A DNA stretch of 41,315 nt from a virus (Duplodnaviria > Caudoviricetes). Positions within the stretch are counted from its first letter, which is position 1, and each line of letters starts with the position of its first letter. Position numbers and translations under genes: made by a program. Positions 4,669 to 34,856 of the stretch are shown in pieces. The stretch is taken from the IMG/VR virus record IMGVR_UViG_3300030433_002981, positions 1-41,315 of that record. One strand, 5' to 3'. The notes below the pieces were generated by a model. The model ran no database searches, was not told the origin of the DNA, and saw only the letters and a list, made by a program, of their open reading frames with translations.

Positions 4669-4830
4669 TTAACTTTCACTTGTAAGTTTATTCCTTGTGA
4701 TCTTCTTGGGCGACCTATTATCCGTGATCAGCAGGGCATCTCGACCACAGTTTCTGCACCCTTTTCTGGGGTAGTCGGCGGTGTAGTATTGGGCCTCGCA
4801 GACAAGGCATTCGATGTGCCAGGACTCCAT
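4669..4830 (-). CDS. Small Zn-ribbon protein (53 aa, not in the ORF track)
   Basis: MESWHIECLVCEAQYYTADYPRKGCRNCGRDALLITDNRSPKKITRNKLTSES; two CxxC motifs; start overlaps the upstream stop. Confidence 0.65.
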   Translation of the reverse strand: MESWHIECLVCEAQYYTADYPRKGCRNCGRDALLITDNRSPKKITRNKLTSES

Positions 4831-5099
4831 CATAACAGTCCCTTGATCCGTATCGCTTTGCCCCCGCCGCCTGACCCTTTGGTTGTTTCTATGCGATACA
4901 TTCGAGTGACCTGGTAGACTTCATCTGATGTGAGCCCTAGTGTCTTTGCGATCTCTGCTCGCCTAAACCCTTGCTGCATGAGGCTGACAATCTTCCGCTC
5001 GCGTTCTTCTTGATCTATCTGTTCGCTCTTTTCTTTCATGCGCATCCGAATCCTTATTGAATTTCCCATTCGTTGCTCGCCGCCCTTTACATTCTTCAT
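4830..5099 (-). CDS. Small HTH DNA-binding protein
   Basis: IVSLMQQGFRRAEIAKTLGLTSDEVYQV helix-turn-helix; the true start may be a downstream ATG. Confidence 0.7.
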   Translation of the reverse strand: MKNVKGGEQRMGNSIRIRMRMKEKSEQIDQEERERKIVSLMQQGFRRAEIAKTLGLTSDEVYQVTRMYRIETTKGSGGGGKAIRIKGLL

Positions 5100-5195
5100 T
5101 CTCTGCCGTATCTTCCGCTCGACACGATGTCTCCTTAACAGAGTGTTAGCCCCGCTTGGCGTCTTTATTCCTTTTGTTCGTCTTGCGGGGCTTTT

Positions 5196-5651
5196 TTATG
5201 CCTCCCATTTGAGTTTCTGTTGCAGCGGATGAGTGTCCACCCTGGGCCGACTAGGTGTATTCCACCCTCGATTTGCAGTGCTTGTCTGGCCAACACACCG
5301 CCATCCTGCGCCTCGTAGACTAGCACCGCCCTCTGACTCTAGCGTGTAGGTAATCAGGCTTGTGTATCCCATAGCTCGCGCAGCTTTCCACGCTGTTGCG
5401 TAAAGCATCGAGCAAGCGTTTCTTGTGCCGTCTGTGCAGCACCGATTGACCTCAAGCGTCCAGCCATTATCAAGATGCCGGGCCACAGGCCTGCCGACTA
5501 TAACTACGCCTCGCACCACATCTTCCTCTGACACAGCTACACAGAACTTTGCGCCCGGCACTGGCTTGTGATGCCGATGATGCTCAGCCACAAAAGCATT
5601 TGCCTCATCCAAGTTGATGGGGGTGACAGCCATCTTGCTCACACTCCACAC
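5196..5651 (-). CDS. XF1762-family (Mom-like, GNAT-fold) protein
   Basis: ANAFVAEHHRHH, VGRPVAR, LEVNRCCTDGTRNACSMLY, ITYTLESEGGASLRGAGW motifs; start may be 5633. Confidence 0.75.
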   Translation of the reverse strand: MWSVSKMAVTPINLDEANAFVAEHHRHHKPVPGAKFCVAVSEEDVVRGVVIVGRPVARHLDNGWTLEVNRCCTDGTRNACSMLYATAWKAARAMGYTSLITYTLESEGGASLRGAGWRCVGQTSTANRGWNTPSRPRVDTHPLQQKLKWEA

Positions 5652-6442
5652 ATCCCATCACACTCGTCACCAAAGTCCATCACAATCTGATCCGCTGCCG
5701 GGTCAGCCAGGTCTGCTTCATCAAGCGGCACAAGTGATCGGTGTATGTAGATCTTGCTTGTTGTGCCACGAAAGTCATCGCGTATGTGTTTGTCCACAGC
5801 AACCGCTTGCTCCCATGACTTGGGATCATTGGCCTTCATCTCACGCCATGTTTTGTTGTCATGGTAGGGGCAGAATGTGCACGCGCTTTTGCGCGGCAGT
5901 TCGTTGTATCCGTTGTCACGCATCCAGCGCAGGCAATGCCACCGTGACATATGCCTTTCAATCAAGGGCCATCGGTTGTTGCACCATTTCTCTGGCGCGT
6001 CTTTCATCCGCTGTATCTCATCGGTGCTGATACCTATCCACTGCTCGACTGTGTCTGCCGGGATACGCTGGCGCGGTTTGTATCCTGCCAGTTCGCGTAG
6101 CTTGCGTTGGATCGGCGTGATCTTGTAGTCGCGGGTACACTGACGCATGAGTATGCCTTCGCCGACCCCGCTTGGTGATGCAGTGAAGAACGGCGGTGAT
6201 GCGCTACGGTCCTCTGGGTTCATGATGTCATCGAGCAGACTGCCTCGCGTCACACGCAGCACAGGGAACGGCAGCTGACTTTCTAGCCAGTCAAGCCATT
6301 CGTAGATGTGATCAGGTTCTGATTGTGTGTCTGCAAAGATCGCATAATCAGGCATGGGCGTGATCTCACCCTTCGCTGCCATCAATGCCATCACGCTCGA
6401 CTGTACACCTGCGCCCAAGCTAATTACTGTGAGCTTGCTCAT
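5639..6442 (-). CDS. PAPS-reductase-like PP-loop nucleotide-binding protein with Cys clusters
   Basis: N-terminal ISLGAGVQSS, FADT, RQCTRDYKI, IGISTDE, KSACTFCPY and terminal ECDGMCGV. Confidence 0.75.
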   Translation of the reverse strand: MSKLTVISLGAGVQSSVMALMAAKGEITPMPDYAIFADTQSEPDHIYEWLDWLESQLPFPVLRVTRGSLLDDIMNPEDRSASPPFFTASPSGVGEGILMRQCTRDYKITPIQRKLRELAGYKPRQRIPADTVEQWIGISTDEIQRMKDAPEKWCNNRWPLIERHMSRWHCLRWMRDNGYNELPRKSACTFCPYHDNKTWREMKANDPKSWEQAVAVDKHIRDDFRGTTSKIYIHRSLVPLDEADLADPAADQIVMDFGDECDGMCGV

Positions 6443-10108: not shown

Positions 10109-10594
10109 ATGGGTCTATTAGATCAAGGGATCGATGTCAGCAACATTCAAGTTGGCGGCACCGACAACACACCGTTCCCTGAAGGGGATTACACACTGGC
10201 TGCGGCGATGTACGAAGAGACAACGTCAAAGGCTGGCAACGAGATGATCAAGATCGAGTTTAACGTTGTCGGTCCTACGCATGCTGGTCGTAAGGTATGG
10301 GATTACTTCGTGCTGAATCAGCAGGTTGGTCTGTCCCGACTGAAGTCTTTCATCGGATCGACTGGCCAGGACGCATCGCACACTCTGAACACAGAGATGC
10401 TGCGAGCCGCGATGGGCAAGCAGTTTACTGCATCGATTAAGGTGGAGGCAGGCACGGGCCAGTATGCAGATAGCAACAAGATTGCCACCTATAAGAACGG
10501 CGCGGGTGCGCCACAACCACACGCTCAGACTGATCAGCCACAACAGGCACCGGCACAACCTGCCCCTGGCCTGAACACGGCAAGCTGGTCGTAG
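10109..10594 (+). CDS. DUF669-like single-stranded DNA-binding protein
   Basis: PEGDY...SKAGNEMIKIEF...GRKVWDYF pattern with a Q/P-rich tail ending in W; ATG at 10109. Confidence 0.8.
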   Translation: MGLLDQGIDVSNIQVGGTDNTPFPEGDYTLAAAMYEETTSKAGNEMIKIEFNVVGPTHAGRKVWDYFVLNQQVGLSRLKSFIGSTGQDASHTLNTEMLRAAMGKQFTASIKVEAGTGQYADSNKIATYKNGAGAPQPHAQTDQPQQAPAQPAPGLNTASWS

Positions 10595-10597
10595 CGA

Positions 10598-10690
10598 GTG
10601 CAGATAGATGACGATACGAAGAAGGGCATCATCATGGGCGTGTGCATCGCTGCATCGGTCTACGCTGCTGCCTTTCTTCTATCGTTGTGA
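10598..10690 (+). CDS. Putative 30-aa single-pass membrane peptide
   Basis: MQIDDDTKKGIIMGVCIAASVYAAAFLLSL; GTG start 3 nt after the SSB stop, no clear RBS. Confidence 0.4.
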   Translation: MQIDDDTKKGIIMGVCIAASVYAAAFLLSL

Positions 10691-10696
10691 TGAATT

Positions 10697-10846
10697 TGGC
10701 GGGGCATATCAGTCGGGTGAGTGGTGGCGTCCGACTGCTCCCAGCAAGGCTCCTACTGGCCTGCTTTAAAGAACAGATGAGATGAAGTGCGCTCCCGCCA
10801 CCCTTTCGAGGGGGGAATAGAAGGCGCCAATCTCATCAACCACCAC
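10697..10846 (+). ncRNA. Putative structured RNA (C4/CI-like antisense or leader element) with a downstream bipartite complementary site
   Basis: Closing stem TGGCGGG(10697-703)/CCCGCCA(10794-800); 10-bp hairpin 10710-737; hairpin 10743-765; loops GTGGTGG and GATGAGAT complementary to CCACCAC (10840-846) and ATCTCATC (10830-837). Confidence 0.55.
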
Positions 10847-10874
10847 ACTAACTATCATTACAAAAGGGATACTT

Positions 10875-11213
10875 ATGAACACCGAAACAAAACAAGAACT
10901 GCGCCAACAGATCGAAAGCCTGGAGAGCAGGATAGTTGAGTTGCAGGAGCAAAATCATCTGCGCCGTCCTAACACAATCGTCCTCACAAACGAGGAGGTT
11001 GCTCAGATCCTAGACCTGATTGGTAGAGCCAAAAGGGACGTTGGGGATGACATACATGAGCATGAAGTAGCTGACGATCTGAGCAGTAGTGCACAGATTG
11101 CTCTGTATCAACACGAATGTTCGTTGGAGTTGTTGTGCAAAACGATCACGAATCAGTGTGAATCTGAGTTTGCATTTAGAACTGAAACGCAGAAAGTTGA
11201 AGTAAGGATTTAG
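10875..11213 (+). CDS. Hypothetical coiled-coil protein immediately upstream of tas
   Basis: 112 aa, AAGGGA RBS, N-terminal heptad repeat. Confidence 0.75.
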   Translation: MNTETKQELRQQIESLESRIVELQEQNHLRRPNTIVLTNEEVAQILDLIGRAKRDVGDDIHEHEVADDLSSSAQIALYQHECSLELLCKTITNQCESEFAFRTETQKVEVRI

Positions 11214-11222
11214 GAGAACAAG

Positions 11223-12092
11223 GTGAAAGATCTATCAGTACAAAATGCGATGCTCAAGGCATCAGTGAACGGCTTCTACAGCATGCAGAAGACACGCATT
11301 CGGATCGGCAACAACATCGTTGCCAACTTCAAGATCAAGATCGGGCAGGAGCCTGGCAAGCCTGAAGAAACCTTGGATGCAGATGCAAAGATGCTGCTAT
11401 CTAACCTTCGTGTCAGCTACAAAAAGATCACCGATGGTGTTGCTGGCATGAACCCTCGCAAGTTCAAGGAAGATGGTTTGATCAGTGAGTACAGCGAGTT
11501 CTCTTTGGTCAAGCAGTACTTCGATCTGGTCGAGGCTGAAGAGAATGCGCTCAAGCAGATTACCTACAGCGTCAAGCAGTTCCCCATCTATCAAGCATTC
11601 CTAGAGGATGTGAAGGGTGTGGGCCCAACCATGGCTGCGGTGATCATCTCAGGCTTTGATATTCACAAGGCGCAATATGCGTCTTCTTTGTGGGCGTATG
11701 CCGGGCTTGATGTGGTTGGCGACAAGGGCAGGTCTAGGATCAAAGAGCACTTGGTTGATCAGACTTACATCGATGCTGAAGGTAAAGAGCAGACCAAGAA
11801 AGGTATCTCGTTCAATCCGTTCATGAAAACGAAGCTGATCGGCGTGCTTGGCTCGTCGTTTGTAAAGACCAACGGTAAGTACCGTGAGATCTACGACAAC
11901 TACAAGCATCGTATCACCCACATGCCTGCTCATGCTGAGAAGACCAAGGGGCACCTCAACAACATGGCGATACGCTACACGGTGAAGCGGTTCCTTGTGG
12001 ACTTGTACACCGCATGGCGCACGCTAGAGGGACTGCCGGTTGCGGATGAGTATTCCAAAGGCAAGCTTGGGATCAATCACAAGGTTGCTTGA
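11223..12092 (+). CDS. tasA: TIGR-associated (Tas) Nop-domain RNA-binding protein, nuclease-lacking (TasA-like); IS110 C-terminal domain homolog
   Basis: Coiled coil (YSMQKTRIRIGNNI) then LEDVKGVGPTMAAVII...SSLWAYAGL...FNPFMKT...HLNNMAIRYTVKRFL, the IS110/Nop fold; no N-terminal DEDD RuvC, no HNH, no IS110 'SG' serine loop; the stop codon abuts a 36-nt dual-repeat array; AGGAG RBS. Confidence 0.85.
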   Translation: MKDLSVQNAMLKASVNGFYSMQKTRIRIGNNIVANFKIKIGQEPGKPEETLDADAKMLLSNLRVSYKKITDGVAGMNPRKFKEDGLISEYSEFSLVKQYFDLVEAEENALKQITYSVKQFPIYQAFLEDVKGVGPTMAAVIISGFDIHKAQYASSLWAYAGLDVVGDKGRSRIKEHLVDQTYIDAEGKEQTKKGISFNPFMKTKLIGVLGSSFVKTNGKYREIYDNYKHRITHMPAHAEKTKGHLNNMAIRYTVKRFLVDLYTAWRTLEGLPVADEYSKGKLGINHKVA

Positions 12093-12816
12093 GCCATACC
12101 GTCTGAGAAAACCAAGATCAGTAAGCGAGCCAGACGAATGAAGAAACCCAAGGTGCAAGAGCGAGCCAAGTAATTTTAGAAAACCAGTGGCAGAAAGCGA
12201 GCCAAGCGCAGTGAGAAAACCATTAATACAGAGCGAGCCATTTCAGCGAAGACAACCAGCGAAGTCGAGCGAGCCAGAGATTTTGAGAAAATCAGCTCTC
12301 CGGAGCGAGCCAAGGATTTGTAGAAAACCAATCGAAAAAAGCGAGCCAGAGCGCGGGAGAAAACCATTTGTCGAGAGCGAGCCATTCGAATTTAGAAAAC
12401 CACCTAGATAAAGCGAGCCATAGACGCGAAGAAAACCAGGCTTACGAAGCGAGCCAGGAGTTTGTAGAAAACCATCGAAATGAAGCGAGCCAATAAGAGC
12501 AAGAAAACCAACCAAGTGGAGCGAGCCAGAGTTATAGAGAAAACCAGAGCCGAAAAGCGAGCCAGAAGGACATAGCAACCCGTCTTTACGAAGCGAGCCA
12601 CAGCGTAAAAGAAAACCAGTGACTAAGAGCGAGCCAAGTTGAAAGAGAAAACCTCAAGTCGTAAGCGAGCCATATCAGAAGAGAGAACCAAGAACCAAAA
12701 GCGCGTCATTATAGTAGAGCGGCCCAGGTCGAGTAAGCGAGCCAAGGATTTGTAGAAAACCAATCGAAAAAAGCGAGCCAATAGGGTGGAGACCCCCAAA
12801 AGGACATAGCGAATCA
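12088..12816 (+). repeat. TIGR array: 20 units of 36 nt (edge repeat AGCGAGCCA, 9-nt spacer A, loop repeat AGAAAACCA, 9-nt spacer B)
   Basis: Exact 36-nt period without indels from 12088 to the terminal edge repeat at 12808-12816; 18 of 21 edge repeats and 12 of 20 loop repeats are perfect; spacers vary except unit 7 = unit 19. Confidence 0.92.
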
Positions 12817-12827
12817 AACAAACAAGA

Positions 12828-13109
12828 GTGAAAGTTATGAAAGATGACTTTGAAATGGAAATGGAAGGCGGCAGTGAGGATCACGAGTACGCCATGGACT
12901 TGATCAGAAACTTGGTGAAGGTCAGCAAAGAAGAGCTAGACCCACGCATTCTGTTTGAAGTCATGATGGTCTATTCGCTGGGTTGGAACATGGCCCACGG
13001 CGACCATGACCTTATGACCAAGCTATTGCCAAATGTCTTGGACAGCATCAATGATGGTTCTTATGCCGATGTGGCAGAAATTATGGAGGAAGAAAGGATA
13101 TGTCACTAG
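12828..13109 (+). CDS. Hypothetical acidic protein
   Basis: 93-aa ORF directly after the array (start 12828 or 12837). Confidence 0.7.
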   Translation: MKVMKDDFEMEMEGGSEDHEYAMDLIRNLVKVSKEELDPRILFEVMMVYSLGWNMAHGDHDLMTKLLPNVLDSINDGSYADVAEIMEEERICH

Positions 13110-13258
13110 CAACAGAAGACTCATCTAAGTTCGCAGAACGTAAACGTGCCGTGCTGCGATGCATCTACAAGTCACCAGAAGACAGCTGGGCCAAGAACTA
13201 TTGGCGCAATACCTATCGAAAACTCATGGAAGAACGAAGAAAGCGCATATGGAACTAA
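13100..13258 (+). CDS. Small basic hypothetical protein (52 aa, not in the ORF track)
   Basis: MSLATEDSSKFAERKRAVLRCIYKSPEDSWAKNYWRNTYRKLMEERRKRIWN; AAGGA RBS; overlaps both neighbours. Confidence 0.6.
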   Translation: MSLATEDSSKFAERKRAVLRCIYKSPEDSWAKNYWRNTYRKLMEERRKRIWN

Positions 13259-14922
13259 GGTACTATCAGCGCGAGGCCGTTGATGCAGCGGTCCACTGGT
13301 TCAACACCCAGGACACGCATCCGCTCATCGTTCTACCGACAGGGGCTGGCAAGACAGTTGTCTTCGCCACACTGATCAAGGAGATCTTTGAGCGGGAGCC
13401 AGACTGCAGGATTCTGATCCTAGCTCACCGGCAAGAACTGGTCAGCCAGGCAGAAGATAAACTCAAGAAAGTATGGCCATGTGCGCCGTCAGGCATCCTG
13501 GCTGCGGGTTTGAATCAATACGAAGTCGATGGGCGTATCGTCATTGCCAGCCGAGATACCTTGGCTACGCCGACTAGACTCAACACCGTTGGCGACTTTG
13601 ACTATATCATCGTGGACGAGGCGCATCATGTTGCGCCAGATCCCAAGACCCGGTATCGCAAGATCTTTGATCACTTTGAATCATCTATCTGGAGGACGCC
13701 GCGCATACTGGGTGTGACCGCTACACCCTATCGTATGGGCCAGGGCTTCATATACGGCCTTGAGGAGCACTTCTTTTCAGGGGTTGCCTACCGTATAGGC
13801 ATACCTGAAATGATCCAACAGGGCTTCCTGTGCCGTCTGTCGGCCTTCAAGGTAAACGATGAGGCTGTGATCGATGCATCAACTGCGCGGGTCAAGTTCA
13901 AGGGCGGCGACTATCGCGAGTCGGACATCGAGAAGCTGGCCATGGAAGATCAAACCATGCTGGCCATCATCGATGATTGGGTAGAGAAGGCATACACCAA
14001 AGGCCGACTGAGCACAGTGTTCTTTTGTATCACGGTGGCTCATGCAGAAAAGATGTGCATGTATCTCAGGCGAGCAGGCATAGAGGCTGCAGTTGTGACC
14101 GGCGAGACTCCAAAGAGAGAACGCGAAGATATCTTGGAGCGTTTTGAAGACGGCCAGATCAACGCGCTGTGCAACGTTGCCGTGCTGACAGAGGGTTGGG
14201 ATGCGCCACGCACAGACTGTATCGCGCTGCTGCGTCCCACCAAGTCGCTAGGCTTGTACGTTCAGATTTGTGGACGAGGCATGCGCACCTGGGGTGACAA
14301 GAAAGACTGCATGCTTCTGGACTACGGCGAAAACATGGATAGGCATGGCTGCATAGACACTGCTCGTCCATCGATCCCAAGCAAAGAAGACAAAGAGAAA
14401 GAACAAGAAACCAAGATATGGATATGTGACTCGTGCTTGGGCGTCAACGATTCAGATCGTGACACATGCATTGAGTGCGGTGCCTTGAAGCCAGCGCCTA
14501 TCGAACAGCCAAAGCTATTTGAGCAAGACAAGGATGCGGCATCAACACGCATGGCTGCGAGCGGCTCTGTTTTATCTGATGAGCTTCAAGATCCCGTGCA
14601 GGTGCATGAGCGCATCAAGAACGTAGAGTGGGTTTCAGCTGAGTTAAAAACATCGAAGAATGGCAACGACTATCTCAATGTTATGTTTTTAAGTCCCGGC
14701 GACTATTGGCCACAAAACATGCCAATCATGATCGGCATGAAAGGTAAAGCTGGCACGATGGCAGAGAAAAAGTGGCGATCACTAACCAACGGCTTCCCGT
14801 GCCCAACTAACATTAATCACGCTGTTGATCTGGTGAAACATGTAAAGGTGATGAGCCACATCAAACAAATCACTGTAAGAAAAGAAGGAAGATACTGGAA
14901 TGTCGTTAGCGTCCATTTTTGA
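13249..14922 (+). CDS. Superfamily 2 DEAH helicase (RadD/YejH-like) with Zn finger
   Basis: LRYYQ Q-motif, PTGAGKT, DEAHH, TATP, LTEGWD, QICGRGMR, CxxC...CxxC; likely start MELRYYQ at 13249. Confidence 0.9.
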   Translation: MELRYYQREAVDAAVHWFNTQDTHPLIVLPTGAGKTVVFATLIKEIFEREPDCRILILAHRQELVSQAEDKLKKVWPCAPSGILAAGLNQYEVDGRIVIASRDTLATPTRLNTVGDFDYIIVDEAHHVAPDPKTRYRKIFDHFESSIWRTPRILGVTATPYRMGQGFIYGLEEHFFSGVAYRIGIPEMIQQGFLCRLSAFKVNDEAVIDASTARVKFKGGDYRESDIEKLAMEDQTMLAIIDDWVEKAYTKGRLSTVFFCITVAHAEKMCMYLRRAGIEAAVVTGETPKREREDILERFEDGQINALCNVAVLTEGWDAPRTDCIALLRPTKSLGLYVQICGRGMRTWGDKKDCMLLDYGENMDRHGCIDTARPSIPSKEDKEKEQETKIWICDSCLGVNDSDRDTCIECGALKPAPIEQPKLFEQDKDAASTRMAASGSVLSDELQDPVQVHERIKNVEWVSAELKTSKNGNDYLNVMFLSPGDYWPQNMPIMIGMKGKAGTMAEKKWRSLTNGFPCPTNINHAVDLVKHVKVMSHIKQITVRKEGRYWNVVSVHF

Positions 14923-15991
14923 TCGGATCGATGAGCAACTAGCGGAGAAAGAAAACCGCTTTCGTGGCCATCTTGGGTTCAGCGGCATTGGTGATGACGA
15001 TGAATACAAACTGTGGATGGGCTTCCGCTGGTGCTTACCGGCAAGCTTCAGCGGTAGGATGCTGCGGCTGTTTGATCTAGGCAACCGCATTGAGGACCAG
15101 GTGGTCGAGAACATTCGTAACACCGATGTTATCTCCATCGCCTCACATGACAAGGACGGCAACCAGTTTCGTGCATCGTTCTTTGGCGGGCACTTCGCAG
15201 GCTCTTGTGACGGCCTCCTCAAGGGCGTTCTGCCACCCCCTAGCGAAGAGGTGATCTTGCTGCTGGAAGTCAAGAGCGCCAACGACAAGCGGTTCAAAGA
15301 GCTCGTAAAGCTTGAAAGCTACGAAGCCTGGAGTGAAACCTATCGATGGCAGATCCATGCTTACATGGGTGCGCTTGGCCTGAACAAGTGCATGGTAGTT
15401 GTAGTCAACAAGAACGACAGCAGTGTGTACACAGAGATCATCGACTTCAATACACAGGTTTGGGAAAAGGCGCAAGCCAAGGCGCAGCGTATCATCTGCA
15501 GTGACGCACCTGACAAGAGCACGCGCATGTCAGAAAAAGACTGGCGCATGAAGAACGAGTCGGAGTTGTATCGCAACATCTACTTTGGTCGCCGCCTGCC
15601 TGAATCGGTCAACTGCAGGAACTGCAAGAACGTGAAGCCACTGACTGAATCAAACGGTGCCGTTTGGTACTGCTCACGAAGCAACAGAGCCATACCTCTT
15701 GAAGAGCAGAAACTGGGCTGCAAGGACCACCTGTGGATACCAGAGCTTGTGAATGCAAACCATCTGCCGGGCAAAAGCACAGAGGATTCTGTGGCTTATC
15801 AGGTTGGGATCATGGAGTTCTACAACTCAACGTCTGAAGTGACAGGTGAGTATCACTACAGCAGCGTAGAGATGCGTGAACTATCTAAGGCAGACTTTGA
15901 AGCGGGCTTAATGATGACCGGCGAGAGCGTGAGGCGTGAGTTTCCTGGCAGCTATCTTGAGAATGTTGACGAGCGCAAGATGCCGTTTTAG
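14900..15991 (+). CDS. Cas4-like / PD-(D/E)XK phage exonuclease
   Basis: HLGFSGIG, G...E, GSCDG, LLEVKS, QIHAYM, C-terminal NCRNC. Confidence 0.8.
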   Translation: MSLASIFDRIDEQLAEKENRFRGHLGFSGIGDDDEYKLWMGFRWCLPASFSGRMLRLFDLGNRIEDQVVENIRNTDVISIASHDKDGNQFRASFFGGHFAGSCDGLLKGVLPPPSEEVILLLEVKSANDKRFKELVKLESYEAWSETYRWQIHAYMGALGLNKCMVVVVNKNDSSVYTEIIDFNTQVWEKAQAKAQRIICSDAPDKSTRMSEKDWRMKNESELYRNIYFGRRLPESVNCRNCKNVKPLTESNGAVWYCSRSNRAIPLEEQKLGCKDHLWIPELVNANHLPGKSTEDSVAYQVGIMEFYNSTSEVTGEYHYSSVEMRELSKADFEAGLMMTGESVRREFPGSYLENVDERKMPF

Positions 15992-34083: not shown

Positions 34084-34221
34084 CTATCTTCTCCGACCTC
34101 TTGTCTTTTGCTTTGGCTTCTTCATCGAAGCAACATGTTTCTTCAAGACTGCTGCTTGTTTTTTATGGGCCTTAGATGCTTTCTCTAAGCTTTTAACTAT
34201 TTTTTTAACTTTGCGCACCAT
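34084..34221 (-). CDS. 45-aa Lys-rich peptide (not in the ORF track)
   Basis: MVRKVKKIVKSLEKASKAHKKQAAVLKKHVASMKKPKQKTRGRRR; exactly fills the gap, with TGATG coupling upstream and an abutting start downstream. Confidence 0.6.
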   Translation of the reverse strand: MVRKVKKIVKSLEKASKAHKKQAAVLKKHVASMKKPKQKTRGRRR

Positions 34222-34856
34222 CAAGCAACCTCTTCCCAGTTTGGAGTTTGACTGTCTGTTACATCAGTCCAACTCGGTGTTTGACTATCGTTAACAGCAC
34301 TCCAGCTTGGCGTTTGACTATCTGTTACAGAAGCCCAACTTGGTGTTTGACTGTCCGTGATTGCTGTCCAGTTTGGGTCTTGTCCGTCGTTTATAATACC
34401 GTAAACGTTGAAATATCCTATCGCACCCGTTGACGTAACGCCCGCAGGAGTTGCGTTAGCTGTTCCCGATACTGACGCAGATCCAATCTCTCCGTCACCC
34501 TGCACGCCAGTGACTGATGCATTAGCTGTGCCCGTGATCGCAACCGAACCAGCCGCTCCAGTGCCTGAAACGCCAGATACACTAACATTCGCATCTGCCG
34601 ATACAGTAACCGCTCCGACAGATCCAGTTCCTGCCACGCCTGCGACAGATACATCGACACCCGCCCCTTGGACGATTGTGACCGACCCGATTGACCCTGT
34701 GCCAGAAACGCCTGTGACAACGGCATCTGTGCTAAGGATGACCGTGACTGACCCAACAGAACCTGTTGCAGATACGCCACTAACTTCAATAGGCGCTTCT
34801 TCGCCCCAAGCGCCCTCACCCCAAGTGCCTCTGCCCCAACCCGTAACATTTGCCAT
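34221..34856 (-). CDS. Gly/Ser/Val-rich virion protein with C-terminal DSQTPSW repeats
   Basis: WGxGxWG N-terminus, VTGVSGTGSxGSV repeats, five 11-aa C-terminal repeats. Confidence 0.7.
   Translation of the reverse strand: MANVTGWGRGTWGEGAWGEEAPIEVSGVSATGSVGSVTVILSTDAVVTGVSGTGSIGSVTIVQGAGVDVSVAGVAGTGSVGAVTVSADANVSVSGVSGTGAAGSVAITGTANASVTGVQGDGEIGSASVSGTANATPAGVTSTGAIGYFNVYGIINDGQDPNWTAITDSQTPSWASVTDSQTPSWSAVNDSQTPSWTDVTDSQTPNWEEVA

Follow-up and report, generated by a model that had tools for sequence, protein, structure and literature searches.

The TIGR-Tas family has been published, and 6,685 of its arrays are catalogued. As described, its proteins bind DNA as dimers, with each spacer of a guide on one strand and no requirement for a PAM (PMC12045711). 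Within this family, the system closest by description to the locus studied here is dual-repeat TIGR-TasA of the FpTasA type, in which a solo Nop protein accompanies a 36-nt dual-repeat array (Faure et al. 2025, PMC12045711). TasA has been reported to repress transcription in E. coli, including that of a chromosomal gene, the published repression data coming from stem-loop systems (bioRxiv 10.64898/2026.09.09.750476). Two nuclease-bearing relatives are also relevant: SpTIGR-TasH from Salicola phage CGphi29 (PDB 9W04, 21KL and others) and TaTasR (PDB 9MTY). SpTasH is reported to pair only 8 bases per spacer (bioRxiv 10.64898/2026.08.11.744272), and its residues Y289 and H296 to process the pre-tigRNA (PMC13421893). 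How TIGR arrays gain spacers, and what their natural targets are, are stated as open questions in two accounts of the family (PMC12045711; bioRxiv 10.64898/2026.09.09.750476).

In this study, we compared these systems with a cassette in a linear virus record of 41,315 bases, 77% complete, the whole of which is referred to as the window. On sequence and model comparison, the cassette is confirmed as a real, intact dual-repeat TIGR-TasA of the published family. Its features are as follows.

10109..14922, + strand: variable slot holding the cassette, from the DUF669/SSB gene to the helicase, in the replication module
11223..12092, + strand: tasA, 289 aa, GTG start, a coiled-coil and Nop-domain protein without N-terminal nuclease (from the ORF, PDB sequence matches and model)
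12051..12080, + strand: codons for Y277 and H286, which probably correspond to the SpTasH pair Y289/H296
12088..12816, + strand: dual-repeat TIGR array of 20 units, each consisting of edge AGCGAGCCA, spacer A (9 nt), loop AGAAAACCA and spacer B (9 nt)
12092..12811, + strand: 20 predicted mature 36-nt tigRNAs, cut in the edge between its 4th and 5th base on the model of SpTasH
12304..12339, + strand: unit 7, which has the same spacers as unit 19
12736..12771, + strand: unit 19, a duplicate of unit 7; in L019, a near-identical array, this position is taken by an unrelated unit

The first-pass annotation had described an exact 36-nt period repeated 20 times from the TGA stop of a 289-aa protein. 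We found the register to be exact from 12088, and the edge of unit 1, which is truncated at its 5′ end, does overlap the stop codon; the repeat copies, however, are not all exact. The edge is exact in 18/20 units, with unit 1 differing at 3 positions and unit 18 at 2, while the loop is exact in 12/20 and shows at most 4 differences otherwise. The last edge (12808-12816) is truncated at its 3′ end. All 20 of the spacer pairs read at first pass match the sequence, and the count of 19 distinct guides holds because units 7 and 19 have identical spacers. Contigs of a public run (X1; seemingly independent, though possibly the source sample) cover the array with no differences and break at both unit 7 and unit 19, consistent with a real duplicate. 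When the edge 9-mer was sought with at most one mismatch on both strands of the 41 kb, 18 matches fell in the array at 36-nt steps and 5 were scattered elsewhere; Tandem Repeats Finder returned fragments of the array only. Spacer A of unit 14 (12556-12591) and spacer B of unit 20 (12772-12807) have 8/9 bases in common; the loops of both are degenerate, both belong to the units shared most widely, and by a rough estimate this likeness would arise by chance with a probability of about 0.08.

The edge repeat is identical to that of SpTIGR and the loop is one base apart (Faure et al., PMC12045711 supplements). Synthetic mature SpTasH tigRNAs, as given in Table S3 of the same source, begin and end inside this same edge repeat, and because the edge is shared with them we place the predicted guides at 12092-12811. 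A cut inside the edge would also explain why the truncated terminal edges keep exactly the halves that are needed. On the protein side, Y277 aligns with SpTasH Y289, and Y277 and H286 are each at least 90% conserved among 53 homologues; the two residues are likely to form a putative pre-tigRNA processing pair. We infer that H286 is the equivalent of SpTasH H296, with a Y-to-H spacing of 9 here compared to 7 in SpTasH.

As in the FpTasA type, the cassette is phage-borne and couples a solo Nop-domain protein to a 36-nt edge/A/loop/B array with truncated terminal edges and a box C of CCA. It differs from dual-repeat TIGR-TasA as published, to which it is likened by description, in having 20 units where 5-15 are typical, and in what follows the array: a terminator is typical there, if not obligatory, whereas a simple consensus scan of the + strand over 10400-13300 identified no terminator-like site. 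The next ORF starts at 12828. With no such site on the + strand, a longer operon transcript probably includes the array. Pieces of tasA and array from kin phages are present in RNA runs X19 and X20 as assembled contigs only, which is short of proof of transcription.

Repeat structure extends the comparison to the population of relatives. Each of the 804 units surveyed was identified by similarity to the consensus of its array, and related arrays count more than once. Edge positions 2-7 were paired in 752 (A-U 335, G-C 256, G-U 161) and edge positions 3-6 in 787. Loop positions 2-7 were paired in 762/804, but loop positions 3-6 in only 26/804. This pattern corresponds to the published distinction between edge and loop, namely a box C/D pair in both and an extra pair in the edge only (PMC12045711). 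Compensatory box C/D base pairing is thus kept in the repeats. Box D is AG in both repeats of the window, in contrast to UG in TaTasR.

To place the protein, sequence and structure were compared separately. The GVGP and LWAYAGL motifs named at first pass are present in the 289-aa protein. Sequence matches in the PDB were solely to TasR 9MTY (E 1.5e-13, the best) and TasH (E 4.9e-7). An AlphaFold model, calculated from the query and 53 of 120 homologues among the matches listed, had a pLDDT of 80 and begins with a coiled-coil helix (residues 4-39). With this model, the top ten Foldseek matches were all TasH or TasR (TM ~0.6), and VIA ranked TasH/TasR first (Z 18.7-20.4), followed by IS110 recombinases (Z 14.5-14.8) and Nop5/Prp31 (Z ~8), in line with the earlier claim of a Nop fold related to Tas, IS110 and Nop5. 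Among structures, SpTasH matched best (Z 20.4, rmsd 2.7 over 221 residues) at 23-27% identity, and TaTasR gave Z 19.3 with an rmsd of 1.9. Together with an edge repeat identical to that of SpTIGR, the Tas-only PDB matches and the TasH/TasR-first model uphold the assignment to a TIGR-Tas-type system.

What sets the protein apart is its N-terminus. The alignment of model residues 2-289 begins at residue 62 of TasH and at residue 110 of TasR, and against IS621 the whole model covers only residues 124-314 (Z 14.6), from which it follows that each N-terminal catalytic domain is missing: the HNH domain of SpTasH, the RuvC domain of TaTasR and the recombinase domain of IS110. No N-terminal HNH or RuvC nuclease was present in the model or in the Pfam search of the window protein. 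The 112-aa ORF upstream of tasA, which is missing from several tasA loci, had no nuclease Pfam match, and HNH and RuvC Pfam domains were likewise absent from five longer relatives, of which two have intein domains and three no domain. By sequence and predicted structure, the window protein is a nuclease-free TasA. Box C/D proteins Nop5/Prp31 share its coiled-coil and Nop RNA-binding fold, but have a fibrillarin-binding N-terminal domain that is lacking here, and the guides here come from a tandem array. As separate observations, the TasA relatives P0122 (763 aa) and P0125 (809 aa) have intein and LAGLIDADG Pfam domains; the insert of P0122 interrupts a conserved motif (SLWAYAGLDV in the window protein), placing an intein within an RNA-guided binder.

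The first-pass annotation had also expected standard pipelines to call the gene a transposase. They do: PHROG 4285, 'transposase', is matched at E 1.2e-31, and the same annotation is given to a relative (35%) in Ralstonia phage RSL1. An IS110-family transposase with a bridge-RNA-like repeat would be in keeping with that match, with the single Pfam match of the protein (C-terminal Transposase_20, 18.3 bits, below the cut-off of 21.3) and with the Z-score to IS621, since IS110 recombinases such as IS621 and ISCro4 have the coiled-coil and Nop RNA-binding fold in common with TasA. Nevertheless, as the alignment to IS621 starts only at residue 124, the N-terminal (DEDD/RuvC-like) recombinase domain is absent; moreover, the cassette keeps to one syntenic slot, and its RNA is a 20-unit dual-repeat array. 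The transposase is refuted by domain content, and we give this reading next to no credence.

The major capsid protein of the window is 70% identical to that of HTVC023P and 58-59% identical to those of CRP-901/902, and the phage resembles the described group formed by Pelagibacter phage HTVC023P and Roseobacter phages CRP-901/902 (PMC10149686). Early genes in the window are arranged as in CRP-901/902: primase-polymerase, small divergent gene, ATP-binding gene, DUF669, variable slot and helicase. By tblastn, the window primase had no match in CRP-901/902, and the cultured HTVC023P and CRP-901/902 are absent from the 7 records with a TasA match. Among 80 helicase-kin loci, 44 span the stretch from SSB to helicase; tasA and array occupy it in 3/44 and other genes in 41/44, and the cassette is therefore accessory. 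Among these loci, the cassette keeps to this one syntenic slot. Two genes downstream of the array lies a Cas4-domain exonuclease (14900-15991). Since 39/41 cassette-free kin loci carry it, it is a core phage gene and does not mark TIGR adaptation.

To follow the arrays themselves, 98 loci were parsed, comprising the window and its relatives and leaving out loci that repeat contigs already included. At least five dual-repeat units were found in 80/98, amounting to 862 distinct guides, or 716 after near-identical ones were collapsed. The close set comprises 308 guides (253 collapsed) from loci with TasA at least 77% identical. All 19 window guides are found in L019 (19/19), 9 in L002/L003 and 2-5 in other kin with 97-100% TasA identity; a conflict would be expected to produce such turnover, with guides differing widely among phages whose TasA is 97-100% identical. 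Units move as whole A+B pairs, and there are chimeric units, 10 spacer-A and 18 spacer-B sequences being joined to unrelated partners. In 11 arrays, unique units are spread evenly (0.40-0.55 per fifth), indicating no clear CRISPR-like leader polarity, and repeat mismatches climb from 5′ to 3′ (0.42 to 1.57 per unit); by this repeat decay the 3′ units look older. Array position and state vary among relatives: in L011 the array (5615-5920) is decayed and has indels, in L016 it is displaced by about 2.1 kb from tasA, and in 55-61% relatives (L079-L084, L086, L089, L108, L111, L114) it lies upstream of tasA, with nearly the same repeats.

The two spacers of a unit proved to be coupled. Among the 862 guides, mirror-image (A/B-swapped) pairs numbered 2, 3 and 8 at up to 1, 2 and 3 mismatches, compared to 0.01, 0.26 and 3.1 expected from 300 shuffles, and one such pair joins arrays with different loop repeats. 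In the three best mirror pairs, position 9 differs in 3/6 comparisons and positions 1-8 in 4/48. Spacers A and B end in complementary bases in 259/716 guides (164.5 expected; reached in 0/5000 shuffles) and in 87/253 guides of the close set (null 56), but between units the figure is 186/793 against 178 expected. As this complementarity holds within units and not across them, the two spacers behave as a single entity. In purine content, A and B are anticorrelated (r -0.16, n=253, p 0.004), which would be expected if the halves are read from opposite strands. Mirror pairs, end covariation and this anticorrelation are indirect support for spacers that would pair with opposite strands of one DNA site; the searches described below found no target. 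Position 9 seldom holds C (13/506 in the close set compared to 17% elsewhere). Position 9 of each spacer looks loosely specified, which fits the pairing of only 8 bases per spacer by SpTasH; here, position 9 varies freely, apart from the rarity of C, and covaries between A and B. This covariation could come from a shared central base pair, from a direct A9-B9 RNA pair or from an acquisition bias. The main account of the family reports no obvious A/B covariation and lists a 1-bp overlap substrate (Faure et al., PMC12045711). In our data, shifted overlaps between guides favoured no single geometry. Recognition probably involves an 8+8-base core, the centre of which is read loosely or shared, over a site of 16-18 bp.

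These patterns bear on whether the arrays are in use at all. A selfish or decaying repeat, whose spacers drift or recombine without current targets, would be compatible with the rise in repeat mismatches along arrays, the chimeric units, the decayed array of L011 and the absence of targets in our searches. It is countered by mirror guides in arrays with different repeats, by end covariation within units, by the compensatory pairing of the repeats and by a strongly conserved protein, and we judge it very improbable.

Targets were sought locally in 20 geometries. The window's 20 units matched the window itself with 2-3 mismatches at best, the same as control geometries. Matches remained at background for 250 guides in 282 kb of kin DNA, for guides in 919 kb of TasA-phage flanks and in 715 kb of T4-like loci (20 geometries each), and for the 308 close-clade guides both in 1.15 Mb of capsid-kin loci and whole genomes, including five near-complete TasA-phage genomes, and in 745 kb of helicase-kin loci, that is, kin replication modules. 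Guides had no exact match in other arrays. If the guides served superinfection exclusion against kin phages, or regulated the phage's own life cycle, the cassette-free kin loci (41/44) could be the victims; yet the window, the kin replication modules, the capsid neighbourhoods, the five genomes and the other arrays all gave the results above. Targeting of kin or self is already largely refuted for the DNA searched, and as a whole this explanation is improbable. The negative results weaken own- and kin-targeting for this DNA and favour neither rival elements nor host genes. A T4-like phage was also considered as target and rejected: the mirror-pair pattern occurred in one phage (2 contigs), with a second guide nearby at 2 mismatches, and 80 related loci were at background.

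Collection-wide scans were confined to three patterns in 17-18-bp geometries, and their matches looked like chance. In all viral contigs of IMG/VR, unit 2 gave 9 matches, with no exact 18-mer and no shared gene except in two redundant pairs, and a four-variant guide family gave 16 matches in viral contigs, unrelated apart from two pairs. In metagenomes, unit 2 had 104 matches (51 of 17 nt and 53 of 18 nt, including 8 exact 18-mers), the largest clusters numbering 5, 4, 3, 3, 3 and 3, with guide co-occurrence not above controls; in 401 genomes of the family of L035 it had 0. One 17-of-18 match to unit 2 lies within a gene of L302, the translation of which we take to resemble a restriction-modification enzyme. 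Another is found in L427 (G006, 10.9 kb), a temperate-like phage fragment with DnaB, along with seven weaker guide matches; the names we give its genes other than DnaB are presumptive, being read from sequence. As a target, L427, the strongest lead, was rejected: its 8 matches compare with 1-3 in other geometries, and the permutation gave 7 vs 3.4 (p 0.07) after ten loci had been examined. It occurs in four runs as short pieces only, mostly less than 90% alike.

The possible origin of spacers in coding sequence was assessed as well. A codon-phase test of spacers, based on the idea of synonymous variation, gave p 0.10, all-synonymous guide pairs numbered 4 vs 3.1 expected, and joined spacers had a coding-frame score of z 1.2 compared to about 6 in the positive control. 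These non-significant results speak against the view that every guide is an exact 18-bp fragment of the kind of gene that was modelled. Start-codon-like targets numbered 27 vs 17 of 716.

The same TIGR-TasA machine could instead direct its guides at host chromosomal genes, such as strain-variable defence genes, in the service of anti-defence or takeover. Such a role would agree with the lack of a viral target in the IMG/VR scans, with a spacer GC of 43%, with the position of the cassette in an early/replication operon with no + strand terminator-like site after the array, and with the match in L302. TasA-type repression of a chromosomal gene also works in E. coli (bioRxiv 10.64898/2026.09.09.750476). 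On the other hand, the 104 metagenome matches of one guide were scattered, no marine cluster dominated among them and co-occurring guides did not exceed controls, and the same guide had no match in the 401 genomes of one family. We consider host genes an unlikely target class, though one that deserves to be taken seriously.

Our preferred explanation, held with moderate confidence as a whole, is that the TIGR-TasA cassette silences foreign, non-kin mobile DNA in the infected cell. In this view tasA and array would be transcribed together, and, by analogy with characterised systems, the array RNA would be self-processed by the Y/H pair into 19 distinct 36-nt guides. A nuclease-free TasA dimer would then bind matching sites, spacers on opposite strands and with no PAM, and would likely silence them by transcriptional repression. 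The targets would be foreign DNA, most likely mobile elements, e.g. prophages or co-infecting phages; as no target was found in any search, this class was chosen by exclusion and analogy. More tentatively, the arrays may record an active, undescribed acquisition process that inserts whole two-part units, in either orientation and at any position, from a limited pool of sites in rival elements, with halves that share or loosely read a central pair and avoid C at position 9. This would amount to RNA-guided, non-cutting warfare by an abundant group of marine phages on co-resident phages, with L427 as a weak candidate for a relative of the target, and we put it forward as a possibility about which we remain doubtful.

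Since the type of system is already known, the value of this locus is carried by the population data on array turnover. Around one protein family, the clade provides 80 arrays and 862 guides, in which near-identical phages have mostly different guides. These data constrain models of acquisition to whole units, both orientations, no leader polarity and a constrained position 9. The protein is a compact, 289-aa, nuclease-free binder, and because its repeats match the validated SpTIGR scaffold the system is testable at once. A tractable natural system could be provided by Ralstonia phage RSL1 (L027, NC_010811.2), a cultured jumbo phage in which ORF034, the TasA relative annotated as transposase, is followed by a 1.4-kb gene-free gap with 4 parsed array-like units.

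Several further observations concern the records. Two close genome matches, L028 and L029, were discarded as host clues, being short contigs in metagenome bins of unrelated taxa, and no tRNA genes, sought for host inference, were found in 18 loci. The 20 listed runs come from 13 studies and represent marine, estuary, seawater or viral metagenomes. A 65-kb record (G001) has two distinct major capsid genes (4762-5661 and 58792-59694; 66% and 63% identical to that of the window), and for this reason may be a chimeric assembly. In the window, a Mom-like DNA modification gene stands beside a PAPS-reductase-family gene (5196-6442), a possible DNA-modification module, and a 33/66-bp tandem repeat (34236-34376) lies within the ORF at 34221-34856.
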